42,065 nt of DNA, taken from the NCBI GenBank assembly GCA_036446115.1, contig JAZFSJ010000376.1, forward strand, positions 1-42,065, written 5' to 3'. This stretch comes from Thermodesulfobacteriota bacterium (GTDB lineage: Bacteria > Desulfobacterota > WTBG01). The notes beneath the pieces were generated by a model. That model was not told the DNA's origin, did no database searches, and was given only the letters and a program-made list of their open reading frames with translations. Positions 4,329-37,098 of the stretch are shown here, piece by piece (the first letter of the stretch is position 1; each line of letters begins with the position of its first letter). A program made the translations under genes and the position numbers.

Positions 4329-4567
4329 TATCTCACCTCTTTATCAAAACATGCACCTTCGCAATAAGCACTATCTTCAAGATGTATATGCCCTTCACCT
4401 CTTGCCGTTGCCGCCCTACACCAGTCGAGATTGGCTTTTTCAAGTTTTTCAATTAAGTCAGCCGCTTCAATCCGAGCAGAATCAGTCTGTCCTTGTGATT
4501 GTCCGTATGGATTTCGTAAGATATGCAAAATGTCCTTGGTCTTCATTTCGTCCACTCCCTCTTTCAT
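4328..4567 (-). CDS. hypothetical protein (79 aa)
   Basis: Track ORF. Its start abuts the HNH stop (TAAATG). Confidence 0.55.
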   Translation of the reverse strand: MKEGVDEMKTKDILHILRNPYGQSQGQTDSARIEAADLIEKLEKANLDWCRAATARGEGHIHLEDSAYCEGACFDKEVR

Positions 4568-5053
4568 TTAGTCTTCCTTGATTGCATTTAAAAATGCGAA
4601 ATCCCCATGATGTTCAATTGCAGCCTCATTGTATATTTTAGCAGCCTCTTTCTTGTCGTTGTAATAACCAAGGGATATATATTTTCCATTCTTCTTTATC
4701 GCAGCAGCCCATTTCTGCTCTCCTTTATGCCACTTGACTCCTTTATAGCCAGAAGTATTGTTCTTCGGTATTCCTCTGTTGCAAAGATTCTCCGAGCTAG
4801 AGCAAGCTCTCAAGTTTGTTTTTTGATTATTTAGACCATTACCGTCAATATGGTCACTTTGCCTCCTATCGCCTTTTTGTATTCCAAGAAGCAACCGATG
4901 CATATATAAGCTACCTTTCGTTCCATCAGAAAAATTAACGCTCCTTATAGCATAGCCTTTATAATCAAAACGCCATTTCCATTTATTCAGAAGTTCAAAG
5001 TCTTCATCATCAACTATTACTACTTTGCCCTGAGTTAACTTAATTTCCTTCAT
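4568..5053 (-). CDS. HNH homing endonuclease with C-terminal AP2 DNA-binding domain (copy 1 of 3)
   Basis: The HNH_3 motif is DHIDGNGLNNQKTNLR...ENLCN. The AP2 motif is SGYKGV...KW.A.I..NGK.ISLGYY...EAAKIYNEAA..HHGDFA. The start is set at MKEIKLTQGK by analogy with the two paralogues. Confidence 0.85.
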   Translation of the reverse strand: MKEIKLTQGKVVIVDDEDFELLNKWKWRFDYKGYAIRSVNFSDGTKGSLYMHRLLLGIQKGDRRQSDHIDGNGLNNQKTNLRACSSSENLCNRGIPKNNTSGYKGVKWHKGEQKWAAAIKKNGKYISLGYYNDKKEAAKIYNEAAIEHHGDFAFLNAIKED

Positions 5054-5154
5054 TCTCCCCATCTCCTCTTTTCTCTTTTATTCCACACATGAAAGAACGC
5101 TATTATTACTATTATCAGGGCAACCCAACCGATAAACAGATATAGATAGTCCAT
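5050..5154 (-). CDS. micro-ORF, 34 aa single-TM peptide (MDYLYLFIGWVALIIVIIAFFHVWNKREKRRWGE)
   Basis: Not on the track. It has ATGA overlaps at both ends, with the stop of 5154..5471 and with the start of the HNH gene. Confidence 0.4.
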   Translation of the reverse strand: MDYLYLFIGWVALIIVIIAFFHVWNKREKRRWGE

Positions 5155-11060: not shown

Positions 11061-11135
11061 TAGGGATTAGTTAGGCTTAGTTATATATAGTTAGGGGAGT
11101 AGGGGGAGGGTCGGGGGTGGATAGGGGGAGGGAGT
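11061..11135 (+). repeat. TTAGG-type degenerate repeats merging into G-tract cluster; TAGGGGGAGGG direct repeat (11100-11110, 11122-11132)
   Basis: The sequence is TAGGGATTAGTTAGGCTTAGTTATATATAGTTAGGGGAGTAGGGGGAGGGTCGGGGGTGGATAGGGGGAGGGAG. It has at least 6 G-runs of 3-5 with loops of at most 6 nt. Confidence 0.7.
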
Positions 11136-11183
11136 AAAGTTACTGCTCGTCTTCCGAGAGAAAAAAACAAAAAGGGGTGTAGC

Positions 11184-11381
11184 GTGGAAGATAATCCGTG
11201 TGTGATCTGTGAGGATTTGAGAAGTAAAAGAATATGTAGGGTGGCGAATAAGTTTGCTAAGAACTTTCATTGGTATCCTGAGAATTTCAGTAACAGACTT
11301 ATGGACAAGGTAGTTATGACTCTTAGGAATGCTTCTACACCTAATCATGCTTGCTACAGAGAAACACAGTGGTTTAAATAG
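11184..11381 (+). CDS. hypothetical Cys-containing protein (65 aa, GTG start)
   Basis: Track ORF. AAAGGGG lies upstream, and its stop abuts the next ATG (TAGATG). Confidence 0.45.
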   Translation: MEDNPCVICEDLRSKRICRVANKFAKNFHWYPENFSNRLMDKVVMTLRNASTPNHACYRETQWFK

Positions 11382-11741
11382 ATGACTTGCAAGAAGTGCG
11401 GTCGTACTGGGTTAGGGACTGAAGATTTCTACGGTAAGTCTACTAAGTGTAAGGATTGTGCTAAGGCTTATTCGCGGGATTATTGGAAGCAGAAAGGGAG
11501 ACTTAAAGACGTTACCCGTACCTACTGCCCTGAGTGTGGGTTAGATGGCAGGGAGTTTCATCGCAATACTACTTACTGTAAGGAATGTACGAGTAAGCGG
11601 AATAAACAGGCATATATGGGTCGTAAGAGTTCTAAGCTGAAGGGTTTGCATGAGTTAATGAATAAGACGGGAGACCGTGAGTTGTATATGCGGTATGCTC
11701 GGATGGTTGAAGAGGAGTTAGTCAGATGTGGGGGTTTATGA
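11382..11741 (+). CDS. multi-zinc-ribbon protein (four CxxC pairs)
   Basis: CKKCG...CKDC...CPECG...CKEC. Confidence 0.6.
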   Translation: MTCKKCGRTGLGTEDFYGKSTKCKDCAKAYSRDYWKQKGRLKDVTRTYCPECGLDGREFHRNTTYCKECTSKRNKQAYMGRKSSKLKGLHELMNKTGDRELYMRYARMVEEELVRCGGL

Positions 11742-11795
11742 TGAATAAATGCAAAGGTAGTAAAAAAGGTAGTAAATGTAAATAGGAGAGATAAG

Positions 11796-12173
11796 ATGAA
11801 GAGATTGTTACTTGCTGGAATTTTGGTACTTAGTTTTGCTGGCGTTAGTGTTGCTGGGGATGTTCAGAAGCTGTATCTAACTGGCACTTCTCAGGACTTT
11901 AATGTGAGTCGTTCTGTTTCGGAGGTAGGTAATGCTGATGAATGGAATCTTGAGGGTAGGGCTAAGGTCGTTCTTTACAAGGGATTTGGCGTTGATAGTT
12001 CTCTCAATTGGGGTGTCGGTAACGCTATTGATAGTTCTGATGCAACTGTAGGCGTGTTCTACCAGCCTAATGATTGGTCTGAGGTTTCTTACTCTACCAC
12101 CTTCGGCATTGACCGCTTTCAGGACGTAGGAGATGTTAGTGTGATAAAGGTTAGTATAGGTAAAGGGTTTTAA
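11796..12173 (+). CDS. secreted beta-rich protein, small outer-membrane-protein-like
   Basis: The signal peptide is MKRLLLAGILVLSFAGVSVA|GD. The C-terminus has an alternating hydrophobic pattern ending in ...SIGKGF, with the terminal Phe typical of BAM substrates. Confidence 0.55.
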   Translation: MKRLLLAGILVLSFAGVSVAGDVQKLYLTGTSQDFNVSRSVSEVGNADEWNLEGRAKVVLYKGFGVDSSLNWGVGNAIDSSDATVGVFYQPNDWSEVSYSTTFGIDRFQDVGDVSVIKVSIGKGF

Positions 12174-12176
12174 TTA

Positions 12177-12259
12177 GTAGAGGTGGCGGAATAGGTAGAC
12201 GTATGGGGGCTGAGAAGTCGTCAGTATGAAGGTCATGTTGGGGTTAGCCACCTGACTAC
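12177..12259 (+). ncRNA. tRNA-Leu-like 5' portion enclosed in an 11-bp hairpin; not a canonical tRNA
   Basis: GTAGAGG-TG-GCGGAATAGGTAGACGT corresponds to the acceptor 5' strand, U8 and a class II D arm. CTGAGAA is an anticodon-loop-like heptamer. There is no anticodon stem or T arm. Positions 12177-12187 pair with 12247-12259. Confidence 0.4.
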
Positions 12260-12331
12260 CCTTAAATGTGGGGAACCATATCATACGCGGTATACAGGCT
12301 AATACTATGTAGGGTGACTATACGAATATAT

Positions 12332-12350
12332 GTGGGTTCGATTCCCAACA
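12332..12350 (+). ncRNA. T-arm-like hairpin 1 (GGTTCGATTCC)
   Basis: GTGGG-TTCGATT-CCCAA forms 4 bp plus a G/A mismatch. I could not find a matching acceptor 5' strand. Confidence 0.35.
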
Positions 12351-12364
12351 AGTTCTTGGAGAAT

Positions 12365-12406
12365 GAGTCTTAACAGACAAGAGCGGTTCGATTCCGTAAA
12401 GGCTCG
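12365..12406 (+). ncRNA. tRNA-like acceptor/T-arm minihelix
   Basis: The layout is GAGTCTT-N10-AGCGG-TTCGATT-CCGTA-AAGGCTC-G. The acceptor stem is 7 bp with one G-U, the T loop is canonical, and D and anticodon arms are absent. Confidence 0.4.
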
Positions 12407-12499
12407 GCAAATCCCTGCCTTCTACTAACAAGAGTTGTCCCCCTGCGGGGGTTAGGGTTTCCCTCACTTCGCCCTGCCCCCGCGCCCTTGGAGGATATT

Positions 12500-13116: not shown

Positions 13117-13572
13117 ATGAAAGAAATAAAACTAACTCAAGGCAAGGTGGCTTTAGTTGACGATGAGGATTTTGAGTTTTTATCTCAATGGAGTTGGTAT
13201 TATTTGAATGGATATGCCAGAAGAACTGAAAATATTGACAGTAGTTGTATCTTTTTACATAGGGCAATATTAAAAAATTCTAAGGATATGGAGATAGACC
13301 ATATCAATAATGATAAGTTAGATAATAGGCGTAGTAATCTGAGACTGTGTACTCATAAAGAAAATTCTCAGAATAGAAAGATTGGAATCAACAATACTTC
13401 TGGTTACAAAGGGGTTCATAAACGTCCTGATGGAAGATGGCAAGCAAGAATTGTTGTTAACGATAAGAGAGTTTCTTTAGGATACTTTCGGAATATCTCA
13501 GATGCAGTTTTGGCATACAATGATGCTGCCGAGAAGTATTATGGTGAATTTGCTAACTTAAATAGGATTTAA
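13117..13572 (+). CDS. HNH homing endonuclease with AP2 domain (copy 2 of 3), immediately upstream of terL
   Basis: The HNH motif is DHINNDKLDNRRSNLRLCTHKEN. The AP2 motif is SGYKGV..RPDGRWQARI...KRVSLGYF....DAVLAYNDAAEKYYGEFA. Confidence 0.85.
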   Translation: MKEIKLTQGKVALVDDEDFEFLSQWSWYYLNGYARRTENIDSSCIFLHRAILKNSKDMEIDHINNDKLDNRRSNLRLCTHKENSQNRKIGINNTSGYKGVHKRPDGRWQARIVVNDKRVSLGYFRNISDAVLAYNDAAEKYYGEFANLNRI

Positions 13573-13574
13573 TA

Positions 13575-15203
13575 GTGGCAAAGAGATTAACCAAAAGACA
13601 AAAAGAAAAGAAACTCGAAAAAATTGAGATTCTTAGAAAACAAATAGCAGAATACAAGGAAGCTATCGAAGTAGCAAAAGAGGCAAATCCATTTGTGTTC
13701 TTTGAACCTTCAGACGGAACTATCCCTCCAGACAGAATGGGACTTCTGAATGAGTTTTTAAAAGAAGATGATCTGCCGTCTGGGAAGTTGGATTCTCAGT
13801 TAGACTGTGTTCTGAGCGAAGCTAACATTATTGGTGCTTCAGGTGGTAACAGGGCAGGTAAGTCAGCCATCAGTGCGATTAAGGGTGCTATCAAGTCCAC
13901 AGGAGAGCTTCCCAAGGCTTTAAAGGAGTACGAACATACACCATCAATAGCAAGGGACTTAGACCGCTTTAAGAGACGTTTTGCCAAGGGACAACCGATA
14001 TTAGGTCGTGTTATAGGCGTAGATTTTAAGCAACTATCAAATACTGTAATACCAACATGGCAGAAGTGGATTCCGAAAGAATATTTACTGAATGGCAAGT
14101 GGAAGGATTCATTCTCAGCACAACATTCGACTCTATCACTGTTTAAAGATAATATTTGCTGTGCCAAGATAGAGTTTATGACTAATCAGATGGACGCAAC
14201 GTCCTTTCAGGGACCGGACTTAGATTGGGTGATGTATGATGAGGAGCCGAAACTATCTATCTACAAAGAAAACAACTACCGTTTTGGTACTTCTGAGTAT
14301 CTTGACGTTGGGATTTATTGGACACCGACTCAGGGGCTGACTTGGGCTACCGATTTGTTTCATAACTCTGGACTTTTCGATGATGAAGAGGAAGGTGTTG
14401 AGACAAACGTAGAATTATTCAAATTATGCTCTGTTACGAACAAAAAGGTTAATGTAGGTGTTTTAAGGTCGATTCTCCAAGATGCAATGTCGTATGAAGA
14501 GATAAGAATGAGGCTCTTGGGAGAGGCAATAAGTCTTTCTGGCTTGGTTTACGGACGACTTTTCACGAAAGAGCATATTATAGAGCCGTTTATAGAGGAC
14601 TATCACTCGAAACATGAGTATCTATGTATTACAGGCATGGATCCTCACTTAGTAACACCTTCTGCAATGGTTTTTCTCTTAGTTGATAGGGAAAACAACT
14701 GGTATATAGACAGATGCCACTCAGATGACGGTGATACAGAGCAAATGAAAGAACATTGGCACGAGATTGTTAAGACAAATGGATACAGAACAGGTTGGGC
14801 CGTTGCAGATAAGTCGAGCAATAGCTCGATCATGGCCTTTGGTGGACGAAACATATTCAGAGAACTTAGTATGGGAGCAAATGCTATACCTGCTCTCAGA
14901 ACTTCAGAGAAGTACGAAGGTTCAATCAAGGCAGGAGTTGATGAGATTAAGAAACGACTCCGTAATAAGACTCTTTTTATCGTTAACAGAAAAGAAAATA
15001 AAGACCTGATACAGTCTTTCAGGACCTTAGAGAGAGAAACATACGCAAATGAAGAGTTGAATGGCCCTAAAGACCGTATAAGAGAGGGTAAACACCACTT
15101 TCACGCAGCTTTTAGGTACATTTCGCAGTATCCTTGTTCATGGTACGGAGAAGTAATACAGGCTCCAGAACCTGAATTTTATGATGAAGCAGCCCAATAT
15201 TAG
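13575..15203 (+). CDS. terL: terminase large subunit
   Basis: It has Walker A GASGGNRAGKS and the Walker B-like motif DWVMYDEEP. It is 542 aa, lies directly upstream of the portal, and has a GTG start. Confidence 0.8.
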   Translation: MAKRLTKRQKEKKLEKIEILRKQIAEYKEAIEVAKEANPFVFFEPSDGTIPPDRMGLLNEFLKEDDLPSGKLDSQLDCVLSEANIIGASGGNRAGKSAISAIKGAIKSTGELPKALKEYEHTPSIARDLDRFKRRFAKGQPILGRVIGVDFKQLSNTVIPTWQKWIPKEYLLNGKWKDSFSAQHSTLSLFKDNICCAKIEFMTNQMDATSFQGPDLDWVMYDEEPKLSIYKENNYRFGTSEYLDVGIYWTPTQGLTWATDLFHNSGLFDDEEEGVETNVELFKLCSVTNKKVNVGVLRSILQDAMSYEEIRMRLLGEAISLSGLVYGRLFTKEHIIEPFIEDYHSKHEYLCITGMDPHLVTPSAMVFLLVDRENNWYIDRCHSDDGDTEQMKEHWHEIVKTNGYRTGWAVADKSSNSSIMAFGGRNIFRELSMGANAIPALRTSEKYEGSIKAGVDEIKKRLRNKTLFIVNRKENKDLIQSFRTLERETYANEELNGPKDRIREGKHHFHAAFRYISQYPCSWYGEVIQAPEPEFYDEAAQY

Positions 15204-15211
15204 AGGAATCA

Positions 15212-17047
15212 ATGGCTAACGCTAAGTTAACAGATGAGTTTCTTGAAGATCACGCCAGAAAACTTTTCACCAGTTCTAAGAATTGGACTGATGCTGAGAT
15301 AAGGCAGTCGTGGATTGATGGTAATGACCAATATAATGGAATATTTAAGACTAGCGACAAGAAAAACTCTAAAGTCGTTGCGGATAAGCGACTCTTTATC
15401 AACAAAACTTACAGCCATATACAGCGTATGCACGTTGACATTATGGATACCTTCTTCTTTGACCCTGAAGAGATAGTCAGTGTAGCCTCTTGGAAGTCCA
15501 TTCCTTCCGATACAAGAGATATGGTCAAAGCCCTTCTTAATTACAGACTCAATTCCCATCCTATTAACTTCTATTCTGAATTACACGAGGCTACGCTTGA
15601 CGCTCTAAAGAATAAGATAGGCATATTCAAGGTTTATCCAGAATTAGAGACTGAAGGAAAGGGTGATGATGAGAAAATCACCAAATATGCTCCTGTTATA
15701 GAGACTCTGCCTTACGAAGATGTATTTTTCGACTCTTCTGCTACTTGGAAGGACTATTACAAGTACCCTATAGTCATTAGGATGCGTAAATCCAGAGATT
15801 ACCTTGAGCGTAAGGGCTATAAGAACCTTGAAGACATAGAACCTGCCAATAATACTACGGATACTGTAAAACAGAATAGAGAAATCACTCAAGGGTCGCC
15901 TTTTGCCGTAGAAGAGAAGGATGAGGGTCTTGAAGAGACTTTTGTTTACGAGATATGGACTTTCCTTGACATTGAAGGTAAGGGTAAGGTGGAATCCGCA
16001 TCCTATGTGATGATTGGCAGCTCAGAAGGCCCTACAACCATCGTGAGAGGGCTTGAGAAGAACGAACTGCCTTACAGCGACCTATCGGCTAACGAACCAG
16101 ACAATCGCTCTCCTATAGTCGCTGGGGCGGCTCTACCTGAACCTCATCAGATGTATGGCAAGTCTTGGCCTGAGATTCTTGAAGCCTTACAGAGAGAAAC
16201 TAACGCTATACGGAATCAGAACCGTGAAGCTACCGCAATAGCTATGAGAAGACCATTACTTGTCTCAAGACACGCTAATCTCGACTTAACTTCTCTTGTT
16301 CGTAGGAAAACTGGCGGGATTGTACTTGGAGATGACATCTCTCCTAACGCTGTTAGGGAACTTGAGATTTCCCCACCTTCAAACGCAAGTATTCAAGAGC
16401 AGATAAGAACTGACTCGGATATTTTCGAGATGACCTCTATATCTCCTAACCTTTTAGGTGCTTCAAGTCGTGGAGAAGAAACTGCCACAGAGGTTACAAG
16501 CCAGAACGTCAATGCAAACAAAAAATTAGCTCAGATAATCAAAAATCTTGCCAATACTCTTGTGCTTCCTGCATTCAATATGCTCCTTAGACTTGAACAG
16601 ACATACGAAGATGATGAATTTATTCGTTTAGTAACTGGAAGAATCTTAGGATGGAATCTTGCAGACGATGGGGAGCCTCTTCGTGAAGTAATAGAGGGAG
16701 ATTTTGATCTGAAAGTCAATCTTGGTATAAATAAACAGATTCAGTCAAATAAGTGGCTCATGCTTATGGATAGGGCTACTCAGGCTAACGCTGCTACGGG
16801 TCAGTTAGTCCAAATGGGCGTTGTAGACCCTGCTCAGGTAAGATTCCAAGACCCTGCTGTTTACTTCAGGAAGGCGCAGGCTGTTTTAGGGGAGAAGAAC
16901 TCAGATGAATTTGAAATTCAGGCGCAAGCTCCACCGCAGGAAGCGGAAGCAGGGGGAGTTGCTTCTCAGGCAGGTCTGGAAACGGAAGGGAACATACAGT
17001 TTGGAGGAACTAACCAAGAAGCATTGAGTGGATTAGCACAGGCGTAA
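15212..17047 (+). CDS. portal protein
   Basis: A 611-aa ORF immediately after terL and before the scaffold and capsid genes. The call is positional, and I did not place the family. Confidence 0.65.
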   Translation: MANAKLTDEFLEDHARKLFTSSKNWTDAEIRQSWIDGNDQYNGIFKTSDKKNSKVVADKRLFINKTYSHIQRMHVDIMDTFFFDPEEIVSVASWKSIPSDTRDMVKALLNYRLNSHPINFYSELHEATLDALKNKIGIFKVYPELETEGKGDDEKITKYAPVIETLPYEDVFFDSSATWKDYYKYPIVIRMRKSRDYLERKGYKNLEDIEPANNTTDTVKQNREITQGSPFAVEEKDEGLEETFVYEIWTFLDIEGKGKVESASYVMIGSSEGPTTIVRGLEKNELPYSDLSANEPDNRSPIVAGAALPEPHQMYGKSWPEILEALQRETNAIRNQNREATAIAMRRPLLVSRHANLDLTSLVRRKTGGIVLGDDISPNAVRELEISPPSNASIQEQIRTDSDIFEMTSISPNLLGASSRGEETATEVTSQNVNANKKLAQIIKNLANTLVLPAFNMLLRLEQTYEDDEFIRLVTGRILGWNLADDGEPLREVIEGDFDLKVNLGINKQIQSNKWLMLMDRATQANAATGQLVQMGVVDPAQVRFQDPAVYFRKAQAVLGEKNSDEFEIQAQAPPQEAEAGGVASQAGLETEGNIQFGGTNQEALSGLAQA

Positions 17048-36332: not shown

Positions 36333-36607
36333 CTCTTTTCCATGATGTAGCTCTCTAATAACCCAGCAATAACTCTCCATAAATCAATAGCATACTTATC
36401 AAGGAAAGTCGTTTGTCCCCGATGGATTTCATCATGATGAATATGGCATAGGGGTATTGTATGGTAATCAGAGCATTTAATCCCGACTCCTCCTGCTGAA
36501 CTATGGTGGGGAATTGCTTCTCCTTTACAGTTTATAATAAGACAAGGTTTCCTTCTGATGTATGCCAAGTAAGACTTTGACCTTGGAGTTCTAGTCTTAA
36601 AATTCAA
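36329..36607 (-). CDS. HNH/His-Me finger-like nuclease (prophage DUF968-like)
   Basis: CLIINC....PHH.......SDYHTIPLCHIHHDEIH. Confidence 0.45.
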   Translation of the reverse strand: MNFKTRTPRSKSYLAYIRRKPCLIINCKGEAIPHHSSAGGVGIKCSDYHTIPLCHIHHDEIHRGQTTFLDKYAIDLWRVIAGLLESYIMEKS

Positions 36608-37098
36608 AATTCCTCCTTAATTATATTTTGATAGGCAAAATCGCCATAATGTTCTAAGGCAGCTTTATTGTATGCAAGGGCTGCTTCCTTTTCAGTAAGA
36701 TATGAACCAATGTGAATCGCTTTTTTGTTCGGTTTTATGCGAGCATTCCATCTTCTTTGTCCGATAGGCATCCTTTTATCTAAAGTGACCCCCTTATATG
36801 CTGAGTTACAAGAAATGGATATTTTAGGTTTACTACGTTCATTCTGACTACGTGTGCACACTCTAAGATTCTTACGTCTATTGTCCAGTTTGTTATTATT
36901 GATATGATCTATTTCTTCTCCAGTACGAGGTAGCATGATTAGTCTATGCATATATAGAGTGTTCGGTTTTCCATCTGAAAACATCGGAGTTCTTTTTACA
37001 TATCTATCAAAGTGCCATTTCCGCTTATTCAAGAATTCAAAATCCTCATCATCAACAATGGCAACCTTACCTTGAGTCAATATTATCTCTTTACTCAT
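36604..37098 (-). CDS. HNH homing endonuclease with AP2 domain (copy 3 of 3)
   Basis: The HNH motif is DHINNNKLDNRRKNLRVCTRSQN. The AP2 motif is SAYKGV......RRWNARI..NKKAIHIGSY..EKEAALAYNKAALEHYGDFA. Confidence 0.85.
   Translation of the reverse strand: MSKEIILTQGKVAIVDDEDFEFLNKRKWHFDRYVKRTPMFSDGKPNTLYMHRLIMLPRTGEEIDHINNNKLDNRRKNLRVCTRSQNERSKPKISISCNSAYKGVTLDKRMPIGQRRWNARIKPNKKAIHIGSYLTEKEAALAYNKAALEHYGDFAYQNIIKEEF

Follow-up and report, generated by a model that had tools for sequence, protein, structure and literature searches.

Mimicry of tRNA is known from tmRNA, from Y-RNA-like RNAs and from the 3' ends of plant viruses. In tmRNA, an Ala-type acceptor without a D stem is combined with a tag ORF and pseudoknots, and in YrlA both ends of the RNA belong to the Ro-binding stem, with the tRNA-like part lying distal to it. 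The stable RNAs species 1 and 2 of phage T4 (rnaC/rnaD), whose function is unknown, are co-located and co-processed with tRNAs; neither is known to carry a tRNA-Leu D arm. YrlA and the bacterial Y RNA-like RNAs (RF02553) are non-coding RNAs with a tRNA-mimicking module made up of a T arm, a D arm and an acceptor-like stem, and PMC4201824 describes RNAs of this kind as widespread. In the engineered tRNA scaffold for recombinant RNA expression, an arbitrary structured insert takes the place of the anticodon arm; the acceptor, D and T arms remain, which lets cellular enzymes process and stabilise the resulting chimera (PMC3753655).

The locus described here lies in a 42,065-nt stretch of contig JAZFSJ010000376.1, which was analysed as a whole and is referred to below as the window. 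A single element of about 250 nt fills the gap at 12177-12426 on the forward (+) strand. The region is free of ORFs, as a first-pass annotation of this DNA had stated, and no reading frame of any size plausibly covers it. We consider it probable that the element is one intact gene for a tRNA-shaped non-coding RNA of ~250 nt that lacks an anticodon arm, and almost certain that it belongs to a family of anticodon-less phage RNAs derived from tRNA-Leu, where it falls into a subclass with an insertion in the T loop. Both the family and the subclass were defined in the present analysis.

ARAGORN and Rfam do not recognise this element. ARAGORN finds no tRNA or tmRNA gene in the whole window and, with introns allowed, calls none of the 86 subclass members. 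Rfam 15 gives no gathering-level match in the window, and at E<=10 it returns only a 15-nt T-arm hairpin against the tmRNA model (model positions 348-362 only, 8.2 bits) and a chance match to a lncRNA (RFPL3-AS1_2) on the opposite strand. The tRNA model RF00005 matches nothing in the window at either the gathering score or E<=10, and YrlA (RF02553) matches neither window positions 12165-12440 nor the family member of phage Ln-9 at E<=10. Identities as a canonical tRNA, a tmRNA, a group I intron or YrlA were rejected on the basis of these searches, in which the T-arm hairpin was the only sign of any of them; ARAGORN and Rfam reveal no ordinary high-scoring tRNAs in the region.

The element shares features with each of the described systems. 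As in tmRNA, its paired ends form an acceptor stem with a T arm beside the 3' strand, and the anticodon arm gives way to a large insert, but the tmRNA search of ARAGORN is negative for it, the Rfam tmRNA model covers the 15-nt hairpin alone, and the combination of a tRNA-Ala-like domain, a tag reading frame and pseudoknots that marks a tmRNA is not found in the window. With YrlA it shares the tRNA-mimicking module, but in the element it is the ends of the RNA that form the acceptor stem. It resembles the engineered scaffold in having a structured insert instead of an anticodon arm between otherwise retained acceptor, D and T arms; the scaffold is man-made, whereas the family is natural, has a Leu-type core and can also take up an insertion in its T loop. 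The likeness to T4 species 1 and 2, compared by description only, would be that of phage-encoded stable RNAs lying with tRNAs.

Anatomy of the element

From tRNA-Leu the element retains the 'top half', consisting of a 7-bp acceptor stem, a Leu-type D arm and a 6-bp T stem. The 5' strand of the acceptor stem, GTAGAGG (12177-12183, +), forms 7/7 pairs, one of them G-U, with CTTCTAC at 12419-12425 and fits the acceptor columns of both covariance models described below (R1 and R2). It is followed by the U8-G9 connector TG (12184-12185, +), which is invariant across alignments A1 and A2, and by a D arm of tRNA-Leu type (GCG / GAATAGGTAGA / CGT, 12186-12202, +) with a 3-bp stem whose third and last pair is G-U. 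The 5' module of the family, a 7-nt acceptor strand, UG and GCGGAAUAGGUAGACGC, is therefore present at 12177-12202 (GTAGAGGTGGCGGAATAGGTAGACGT), where the first-pass annotation had correctly placed the acceptor strand and D arm of a Leu-type tRNA. The 20-mer GGTGGCGGAATAGGTAGACG of the D arm is identical in genuine bacterial tRNA-Leu genes, among them genes from Desulfobacteraceae and Thermodesulfobacteriota, and in more than 120 viral elements that are not tRNAs.

In its acceptor stem, U8-G9 and 3-bp D stem with an 11-nt loop the element agrees with bacterial class II tRNA-Leu, with identity over 20 nt, and the T stem abuts the acceptor 3' strand in the element too. Unlike class II tRNA-Leu, the element has no anticodon arm, no long variable arm and no encoded CCA, its T stem is 6 bp long (not 5), and its T loop, UG...CAAAU, is split by a helix. 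It is not a decoding tRNA. At the position of the anticodon arm lies a variable domain of ~100 nt (variable domain 1, 12203-12305, +), which R2 aligns as an insert and which ranges from 11 to 182 nt across the subclass (n=86 members). The domain includes CTGAGAA (12210-12216), which had been likened to a Leu anticodon loop lacking its stem; that observation was correct, as no anticodon stem can be drawn in the element.

Within the subclass, a conserved helix (ACUAUACGAG...CUCGK) is inserted into the T loop (UG/CAAAU), and the tip of this helix forms a second variable domain. In the window, conserved YAUG (TATG) and the T-stem 5' strand GTAGGG (12309-12314) occupy 12306-12314 (+). The strand forms 6/6 pairs with CCCTGC at 12413-12418 (+), placed by the R1 and R2 alignments, and the resulting stem is stacked on the acceptor stem with no gap between them. 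After the initial T-loop bases TG come conserved ACTAT and ACGAA, the 5' strand of the inserted helix, for which the family consensus is ACGAG (12315-12326, +). The arrangement of YAUG, a 6-nt T-stem strand and UGACUAUACGAGUA is recovered by the block-A HMM at 12303-12328 (24.8 bits, E = 7e-7), ACGAA being its single substitution, and R2 flags one non-pair (G->A) in the inserted helix. Downstream, the inserted-helix 3' strand CTCGG and the last five T-loop bases CAAAT (12403-12412, +) are matched by the block-B HMM at 12402-12418 (E = 4e-4), and these two are the only places in the window at which the subclass-specific HMM blocks match. The T-stem 3' strand that comes next, closing the CUCGK-CAAAU block, is abutted by the 7-nt complement of the 5' end with the discriminator T (CTTCTAC plus T, 12419-12426, +; R2 alignment). 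GTGACTATACGA is near-invariant in more than 120 IMG/VR loci, as is CTCGKCAAATCC in alignment A2. CCA is not encoded in the window element and is never present in the family. The T stem had been missed previously because the T loop is split, here by 91 nt.

Variable domain 2 (12327-12402, +) forms the tip of the T-loop insertion, which measures 21-137 nt across the family. In the window phage it holds two extra canonical T-arm hairpins on the + strand, one with its stem at 12333-12336/12344-12347 and the loop TTCGATT, the other with its stem at 12383-12386/12394-12397, as well as most of an acceptor/T-arm minihelix that encloses one of them (GAGTCTT/AAGGCTC, 12365-12371/12399-12405, a complement noted earlier and confirmed here). 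Hairpins and minihelix are recovered in constrained and free folds alike, and the 3' strand of the minihelix overlaps the inserted-helix strand of the family at 12404-12405. The T-arm 11-mer GGTTCGATTCC, at 12335 and 12385, has only these two exact copies in 42 kb, and with one mismatch it is matched 3 times in the window against 0.5 expected from shuffles. The two hairpins are not the element's own T arm, as had been supposed, since they fall within variable domain 2. T-arm-like hairpins occur in domain 2 of only 1/86 members, so this content is lineage-specific.

All strings and coordinates of the first-pass annotation proved exact, although not all of its helices did. Neither the pairing of 12177-12187 with 12247-12259 nor that of TGTTGGG with CCCAACA (12236-12242/12344-12350, both strings being present) has a counterpart in the family model. 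The region contains 10 complementary pairs of 7 nt, not higher than the 8.3 +/- 4.0 of shuffles, and its folding energy is unremarkable (z = -0.59), so the long-range complements found by hand are no evidence alone; GTAGAGG/CTTCTAC, the family acceptor stem, is the sole one backed by comparative data. The family-constrained fold lies 6 kcal/mol above the free MFE.

Family membership and covariation

A first covariance model, R1, was derived from the simple subclass. It gives only 34.4 bits on the window and 35-50 bits on genuine tRNA-Leu genes; because it fails to discriminate members from such genes, a second model, R2, was built and trained on 42 other members, with the window excluded. R2 matches the window over the full model with 79.4 bits (E ~5e-21), the only meaningful match in 42 kb. 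Independent members outside the training set score 76.6-91.8 bits, simple-subclass members 44-61 bits and genuine tRNA-Leu genes with the same 20-mer 37-44 bits, so that, over the whole model, the window scores as other members do and higher than genuine tRNA-Leu.

Among the matches listed, 85/121 viral occurrences of the 20-mer combine a perfect 7-bp acceptor stem with a 6-bp hairpin (7-nt loop) that abuts it, and the remaining occurrences mostly score 44-81 bits with R1. A scan for ATGYARRGTGACTATRCGA found at least 120 loci, with 86 unique members with complete structures among the matches listed. Compensatory changes in the family affect 7/7 acceptor pairs, 2/3 D-stem pairs and 3/6 T-stem pairs; the D stem, which played no part in selecting members, covaries between GCG/CGC and GUG/CAC. 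Across very different phages, ~60 nt are near-invariant. The family is structured and conserved, with covarying acceptor, D and T stems.

These results bear directly on the possibility that the region is a relic, that is, a functionless tRNA-Leu pseudogene accompanied by T-arm fragments. Such decay would fit with the silence of every tRNA detector and with the relatives that lack the element, and 12177-12259 can be threaded by hand as an 83-nt tRNA-Leu with a damaged 3' half. However, all conserved family blocks are intact and in the correct order, the acceptor (7/7) and the T stem (6/6) pair across 240 nt, and with R2 the element scores as high as other members and twice as high as real tRNA-Leu genes. 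Nor would decay of a cluster be expected to yield the subclass-specific blocks GTGACTATACGA and CTCGGCAAATCC, and we regard it as very improbable. The unit-by-unit description as an 83-nt pseudogene plus fragments was replaced by a single-gene model, and with it falls the earlier notion of a region assembled from tRNA parts or of several decayed tRNAs. Of the two origins first proposed, decayed tRNAs or a dedicated tRNA-mimic RNA, it is the mimic that survives, as a full-scoring member of a covarying family. The element is very probably functional at the RNA level rather than a relic.

Distribution and genome context

Two scans of IMG/VR, with at least 120 loci in each, place this architecture in more than 200 viral contigs, and the family is present in cultured phages of Listeria, Enterococcus, Leuconostoc, Lactobacillus and other Firmicutes. 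The inspected family loci carry no GenBank annotation, these stretches being recorded as empty intergenic DNA, and Rfam gave no match for the family members tested. The family was not found described in a search of the full-text literature, in which the literal motifs were also used, nor does a description appear in the accessible parts of PMC13434031 and of PMC10690425, a paper with 10,006 candidate viral RNAs.

Several other routes to relatives were followed. BLAST matches in cultured Gram-negative phages and cyanophages proved to be genuine tRNA-Leu genes and were rejected as family members. Exact 19-22-mers of the region (GGAATAGGTAGACGTNNGGGGG, CGGTTCGATTCCGTAAAGG) have 0 viral matches, and an ancestor-type pattern, GGAATAGGTAGACG N25-52 CAAATCCCTGC, has 0 genome matches. 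Twin T arms ~50 nt apart occur at more than 120 loci, mostly tRNA neighbours or a separate conserved 'class-35' RNA, and were discarded as a recurrent module; nhmmer and BLAST of the region against the twin-T-arm loci matched T arms only. A set of 335 orphan T loops shows no enrichment of the minihelix arrangement, in which an acceptor strand lies <=20 nt from the T stem.

The element and its neighbouring genes lie on the same strand. In the window it is found between early/moron genes and the packaging module, and in small siphophages (Ln-9, B025, Pd_22F, BtpYZU01) between early or late-regulator genes and HNH/terS/terL; in EFDG1 and phiLM33_01 it lies inside or beside tRNA clusters. The elements of Listeria phage B025, Leuconostoc phage Ln-9 and Enterococcus phage EFDG1 occupy 41913-42089, 157-271 and 46500-46691, respectively. 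ORF clustering around 119 IMG/VR loci showed recurrent module types, with late regulators upstream and terS downstream, and no conserved neighbouring protein. No promoter or terminator was detected near the element. The TerL relatives of the window phage (L001-L003, L127-L134) and the contexts of moron homologues (L124-L126) contain no tRNA or family member; covariation could therefore not be obtained through them and, as the closest relatives of the window phage do without it, the element is dispensable. It is an accessory (indel) element.

This setting could also suggest an element acting at the level of DNA, either an attP/integration scar or part of a cos/packaging recognition region. Immediately downstream of the element come a conserved GC-rich block and HNH/terminase genes, in several cultured cos phages it lies within 15-600 bp of the genome end, and the accessible part of PMC9897764 describes tRNA fragments as common marks of integration sites. 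Against this, the window yielded no integrase, the element is missing from relatives that share the packaging module, and in large myophages it sits in tRNA clusters far from genome ends. The compensatory changes affect stems whose strands are 100-300 nt apart, which argues for selection on a folded single strand and not on duplex DNA, and leaves a DNA-level role scarcely credible.

Proposed processing, possible roles and significance

The acceptor/T stack and the D arm are essential to RNase P, RNase Z and the CCA-adding enzyme, which can do without the anticodon arm. Because the conserved parts of the family are those that these enzymes require, and the part that varies replaces the dispensable arm, the most likely reading, which we hold tentatively, is of a tRNA 'top-half' mimic that host tRNA-maturation enzymes would process into a stable small RNA with a variable payload. 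The element would be co-transcribed with its flanking genes, adopt a tRNA-like L shape and be recognised by host enzymes that need only the top half of a tRNA. Cleavage at the 5' end would fall to RNase P, and trimming of the 3' end, which lacks CCA, to RNase Z or exonucleases, with the CCA-adding enzyme extending this end; the result would be a stable small RNA whose excision would also split the upstream from the downstream mRNA. The tRNA-like core would serve as a scaffold for processing and stability and the variable domains as lineage-specific payload, which in the window phage multiplies T-arm and minihelix sites and would suit a sponge or decoy for a factor that binds T arms or acceptors. 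Some features speak against this mechanism. The acceptor/T stack is 13 bp long (12 is canonical), and the D/T elbow, which is read by RNase P, may lose its canonical form through the helix that is inserted between T-loop positions 55 and 56; in the window this helix has one mismatch (ACGAA for ACGAG), and 2 nt of it are contested by the minihelix. The ordinary folding energy, the dispensability of the element in close relatives and the failure to detect a promoter or terminator nearby weigh on the same side. In addition, the near-invariance of ~60 nt suggests a partner more specific than generic processing enzymes.

A different reading would have LeuRS charge the RNA by way of its Leu-type D arm and elbow, and the RNA would then sequester the enzyme or donate leucine outside translation. 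The D arm equals that of genuine tRNA-Leu over 20 nt and is near-invariant in the family, and LeuRS does not read the anticodon; in work on minimalist tRNA-Leu, E. coli LeuRS reportedly needs neither the anticodon arm nor the variable arm. The main LeuRS identity element is A73, and the discriminator is A in the cultured-phage members B025, Ln-9 and EFDG1, but it is not conserved in the family (A 33, T 20, C 20, G 13; n=86) and is T in the window. With CCA not encoded, a non-canonical T loop (UGCAAAU or split) and the 13-bp stack also counting against it, we consider a leucine-accepting mimic distinctly unlikely.

A counter-defence decoy or sponge, in which the core and the extra T-arm and minihelix modules titrate host anti-phage effectors that bind or cleave tRNA at its acceptor end, elbow or T arm, seems unlikely. 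It would be in keeping with an accessory, patchily distributed element in a moron-type variable region that has lost the decoding parts and kept the recognition parts of a tRNA. The window copy adds two canonical T arms. However, extra T arms are rare (3/86), so they are not the general function of the family, it is hard to see what a decoy would gain from the strongly conserved inserted helix, and we know of no defence system that targets tRNA-Leu elbows. Defences that target tRNA, and tRNA-based escape by phages, are documented in the accessible parts of PMC12851939 and PMC13096335.

We think it quite possible, if just short of probable, that the element represents an undescribed and very abundant class of phage non-coding RNA, in which the top half of tRNA-Leu serves as a modular scaffold open to insertion at both the anticodon-arm position and the T loop, the ~60 near-invariant nucleotides engage a specific, universally conserved host factor, and the RNA has a dedicated role in infection. 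If so, this role might lie in control of the boundary between early and late/packaging genes, in hijacking tRNA-handling enzymes or in counter-defence. A tRNA-Leu core without an anticodon arm and with variable inserts is a distinct natural design for a tRNA mimic, and a natural counterpart to the engineered tRNA scaffold of RNA biotechnology. If the family is truly undescribed, it would add a major RNA class to phage genomes and supply genome annotation with a model accounting for many 'orphan T-arm' and 'tRNA-like' signals. Its carriers include well-studied Listeria, Enterococcus, Leuconostoc and Lactobacillus phages, and in that case B025, Ln-9 and EFDG1 would offer tractable systems for the role of a non-decoding tRNA during infection.

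A tRNA-Leu-derived family without an anticodon arm

The first-pass annotation had described 12177-12430 as tRNA parts that do not fold into canonical tRNAs. Its strings and coordinates are all exact in the window, where GGTTCGATTCC occurs exactly twice in 42 kb (12335 and 12385), and the lack of a canonical tRNA was borne out by ARAGORN (0 tRNA, 0 tmRNA) and by Rfam 15 (0 matches at gathering level). The sole Rfam matches to the window at E<=10 are a 15-nt T-arm hairpin (tmRNA model) and an opposite-strand lncRNA match, by chance. Folding of the region is not better than that of shuffles (z = -0.59) and its 10 seven-nucleotide complementary pairs lie within the shuffled expectation of 8.3 +/- 4.0, so the helices proposed by hand needed comparative support.

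A scan of viral contigs for two GGTTCGATTCC motifs spaced 30-48 nt showed that orphan T arms are common and that most such loci have nothing to do with the window element. What proved decisive was a scan for the 20-mer GGTGGCGGAATAGGTAGACG (window 12182-12201). Bacterial genomes, including those of Desulfobacteraceae and Thermodesulfobacteriota, carry this 20-mer in ordinary tRNA-Leu genes. Viral contigs differ: in more than 120 of them a variable stretch of 10-190 nt replaces the tRNA body, followed by YAUG, a 6-bp stem closed by the loop UGCAAAU, and a 7-nt strand that is the complement of the 7 nt just 5' of GGTGGCGGAATAGGTAGACG. Under a strict definition, which requires 7/7 acceptor pairing and, abutting it, a 6-bp hairpin whose loop is 7 nt long, 85 of 121 viral GGTGGCGGAATAGGTAGACG occurrences among the matches listed are members. 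These 85 members span 60-251 nt, do not encode CCA and vary in their discriminator; most of the remaining occurrences are members by covariance score.

BLAST with one member gave two-piece matches in cultured Firmicutes phages, namely Listeria B025, LP-101, LP-114 and related phages, Enterococcus EFDG1-like phages, Leuconostoc Ln-9 and phiLM33_01, Lactobacillus phiJL-1, Weissella PWc, Paenibacillus Pd_22F and Brochothrix BtpYZU01. Members also occur in bacterial genome contigs (L342, 192-330; L312 of Cohnella lubricantis, 2743-2851), presumably in prophages. Several viral contigs hold two or three nearby copies, in tandem in L159, L185, L203 and L254. In one further contig member (L092, 360-567) the D loop (GGAATAG|...|TAGACGC) is split by about 70 nt, so the D loop is a third position open to insertion.

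RNA mimics derived from tRNAs are already known as a type. The present family carries no annotation in the GenBank phage records inspected; Rfam 15 recognised 0 of 14 member loci at gathering score and gave no match to the Ln-9 element at E<=10. ARAGORN with introns allowed made 0 calls on members of the window's subclass, and its calls in the simple subclass were confined to true tRNA-Leu genes plus a handful of spurious intron models. No description was found in the full-text literature open to searching, literal motifs included, although the subscription literature may differ. As far as these sources extend (Rfam, inspected records and searchable full texts), the family is apparently undescribed; it may be one of the 10,006 unnamed viral RNA candidates listed in PMC10690425.

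A second conserved viral RNA was observed in L008, L025, L046, L047, L049, L051, L061, L078, L092, L098, L116 and about 20 more loci (for example L049 4541-4720 and L047 7793-8003). Two GGTTCGATTCC hairpins, spaced 35 nt, are linked by ..CTCGnTGGnnGAGGTCTGGTGAGAnGnGAG.. and followed by CTGGTGAGACAAA and a covarying hairpin with the loop CGGAAT; the RNA often starts 7-8 nt past a tRNA 3' end. It goes unrecognised by Rfam, whose matches at E<=10 are to T-arm hairpins only.

The window element and the T-loop-insertion subclass

The covariance model of the simple subclass (R1) gave a single match in the window, at 12177-12426 (34.4 bits), and its alignment exposed a T stem in which GTAGGG (12309-12314) pairs with CCCTGC (12413-12418). 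The T loop starts with UG and ends with CAAAU, with about 91 nt between. Other members have a similarly interrupted loop, with ACTATACGAGTA at the start and CTCG(T/G) at the end of the insertion. A scan for ATGYARRGTGACTATRCGA found at least 120 loci, and 86 unique complete members were rebuilt among the matches listed, with total lengths of 122-304 nt, a first variable domain of 11-182 nt and a T-loop insertion of 21-137 nt.

With HMMs for the two blocks specific to this subclass, the only matches in the window are 12303-12328 (E = 7e-7) and 12402-12418 (E = 4e-4). R2, the covariance model of this subclass, was trained on 42 of the 86 rebuilt members and scores the window element at 79.4 bits over its full length (E ~5e-21), compared with 76.6-91.8 bits for held-out members, 44-61 bits for the simple subclass and 37-44 bits for genuine tRNA-Leu genes. 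R1 alone fails to separate the family from real tRNA-Leu (35-50 bits with R1), whereas R2 does so. By its sequence, the window element is thus classed as a full member of the T-loop-insertion subclass. Compensatory changes occur at 7/7 acceptor pairs, 2/3 D-stem pairs (GCG/CGC to GUG/CAC and the reverse) and 3/6 T-stem pairs, and the simple subclass is similar. The percentage of paired cells is circular, because member selection partly used acceptor and T-stem pairing; the variety of pair types and the covariation of the D stem are free of this circularity.

On the forward strand, the element comprises the acceptor 5' strand (12177-12183), UG (12184-12185), the D arm (12186-12202), variable domain 1 (12203-12305), TATG and the T-stem 5' strand (12306-12314), UG, ACUAU and ACGAA (12315-12326), variable domain 2 (12327-12402), CUCGG and CAAAU (12403-12412), the T-stem 3' strand (12413-12418), the acceptor 3' strand (12419-12425) and a discriminator U (12426). 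The family model contains nothing equivalent to two of the helices first proposed, 12177-12187 with 12247-12259 and TGTTGGG with CCCAACA. Both canonical T-arm hairpins are present as described, along with the 7-bp 'minihelix', and lie within variable domain 2. Few members of this subclass (3/86) have T-arm-like hairpins in their variable domains; such hairpins are somewhat commoner in domain 1 of the simple subclass. They are thus a lineage-specific elaboration and not part of the family core. The minihelix 3' strand shares 2 nt with the conserved inserted helix, which is weakened in the window by one G-to-A change.

An accessory insertion ahead of the packaging genes

The window is a phage genome of about 42 kb encoding a large terminase (13575-15203), a portal (15212-17047), HNH-AP2 endonucleases, Erf and an exonuclease. 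The element lies on the coding strand, downstream of a small 'moron' gene for a 125-aa protein with a signal peptide (11796-12173), and is followed by a conserved GC-rich block, small ORFs, an HNH gene and the terminase gene. The nearest relative, an IMG/VR contig with 84% TerL identity, lacks 11162-12432 entirely, and homology to it restarts at 12433, six bases past the element. No tRNA or related element was found in more distant TerL relatives or in three moron-homologue contexts. This distribution marks the element as an accessory insertion within a variable region. An attP scar is disfavoured, since the search of the window found no integrase. The moron homologues in three other contigs (49-86% identity) keep the same position ahead of the packaging region, each without the RNA element, and gene and RNA are thus independent accessories.

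Several features of the surroundings were also recorded. A G-rich non-coding stretch of 84 nt (11078-11161), 93% identical to L001 (a TerL relative) 4544-4627 and conserved far above the surrounding genes, forms the left boundary of the variable block with the moron gene and RNA element. Directly 3' of the element, the GC-rich block (12433-12490, TTGTCCCCCTGCGGGGG...GCCCTGCCCCCGCGCCCTTGGAGG) is kept in L001 (5604-5665) and partly in the moron-homologue contig L124, each time directly 5' of small ORFs, HNH and terminase genes. The block may represent a cos site or the leader of a late operon; a consensus scan called no terminator there. Three HNH-AP2 homing-endonuclease-type genes (4568-5062, minus strand; 13117-13572, plus; 36604-37098, minus) occur in this one 42-kb phage, and the terminase-proximal copy lies in L001 on the opposite side of the GC-rich block.

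A possible role in transcript processing

Members are always encoded on the strand of the genes around them. Their place in small siphophages is 3' of early or late-regulator genes (ArpU/RinA/sigma-like) and 5' of HNH/terS/terL, often near the cos end; in large myophages they lie within or beside tRNA clusters. No constant neighbour protein family was found among the member loci compared. What the family conserves is the stack of acceptor and T stem, together with the D arm and the T-loop bases. By established tRNA enzymology, just these parts are required by RNase P, RNase Z and the CCA-adding enzyme; the decoding part of the tRNA is the part replaced. Encoded CCA is absent in all members, as it is in RNase Z substrates. 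We therefore favour, tentatively, a tRNA mimic that host tRNA maturation would excise and stabilise as an RNA with a variable payload. The Leu-type D arm and elbow make charging by LeuRS conceivable, but the non-conserved discriminator speaks against leucylation. A purely generic scaffold does not fit with an acceptor/T stack of 13 bp, a helix inserted between T-loop positions 55 and 56, and ~60 almost invariant nucleotides; these features hint at a partner more specific than generic processing enzymes.

Under the reading that we favour, the element would be a mimic of the tRNA top half, excised from a polycistronic transcript by the host tRNA-maturation machinery, which would also stabilise the excised RNA. 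The variable domains would be the payload, in the window phage extra T-arm/minihelix sites suited to a sponge, and excision would additionally part upstream from downstream mRNA at the early/packaging boundary.
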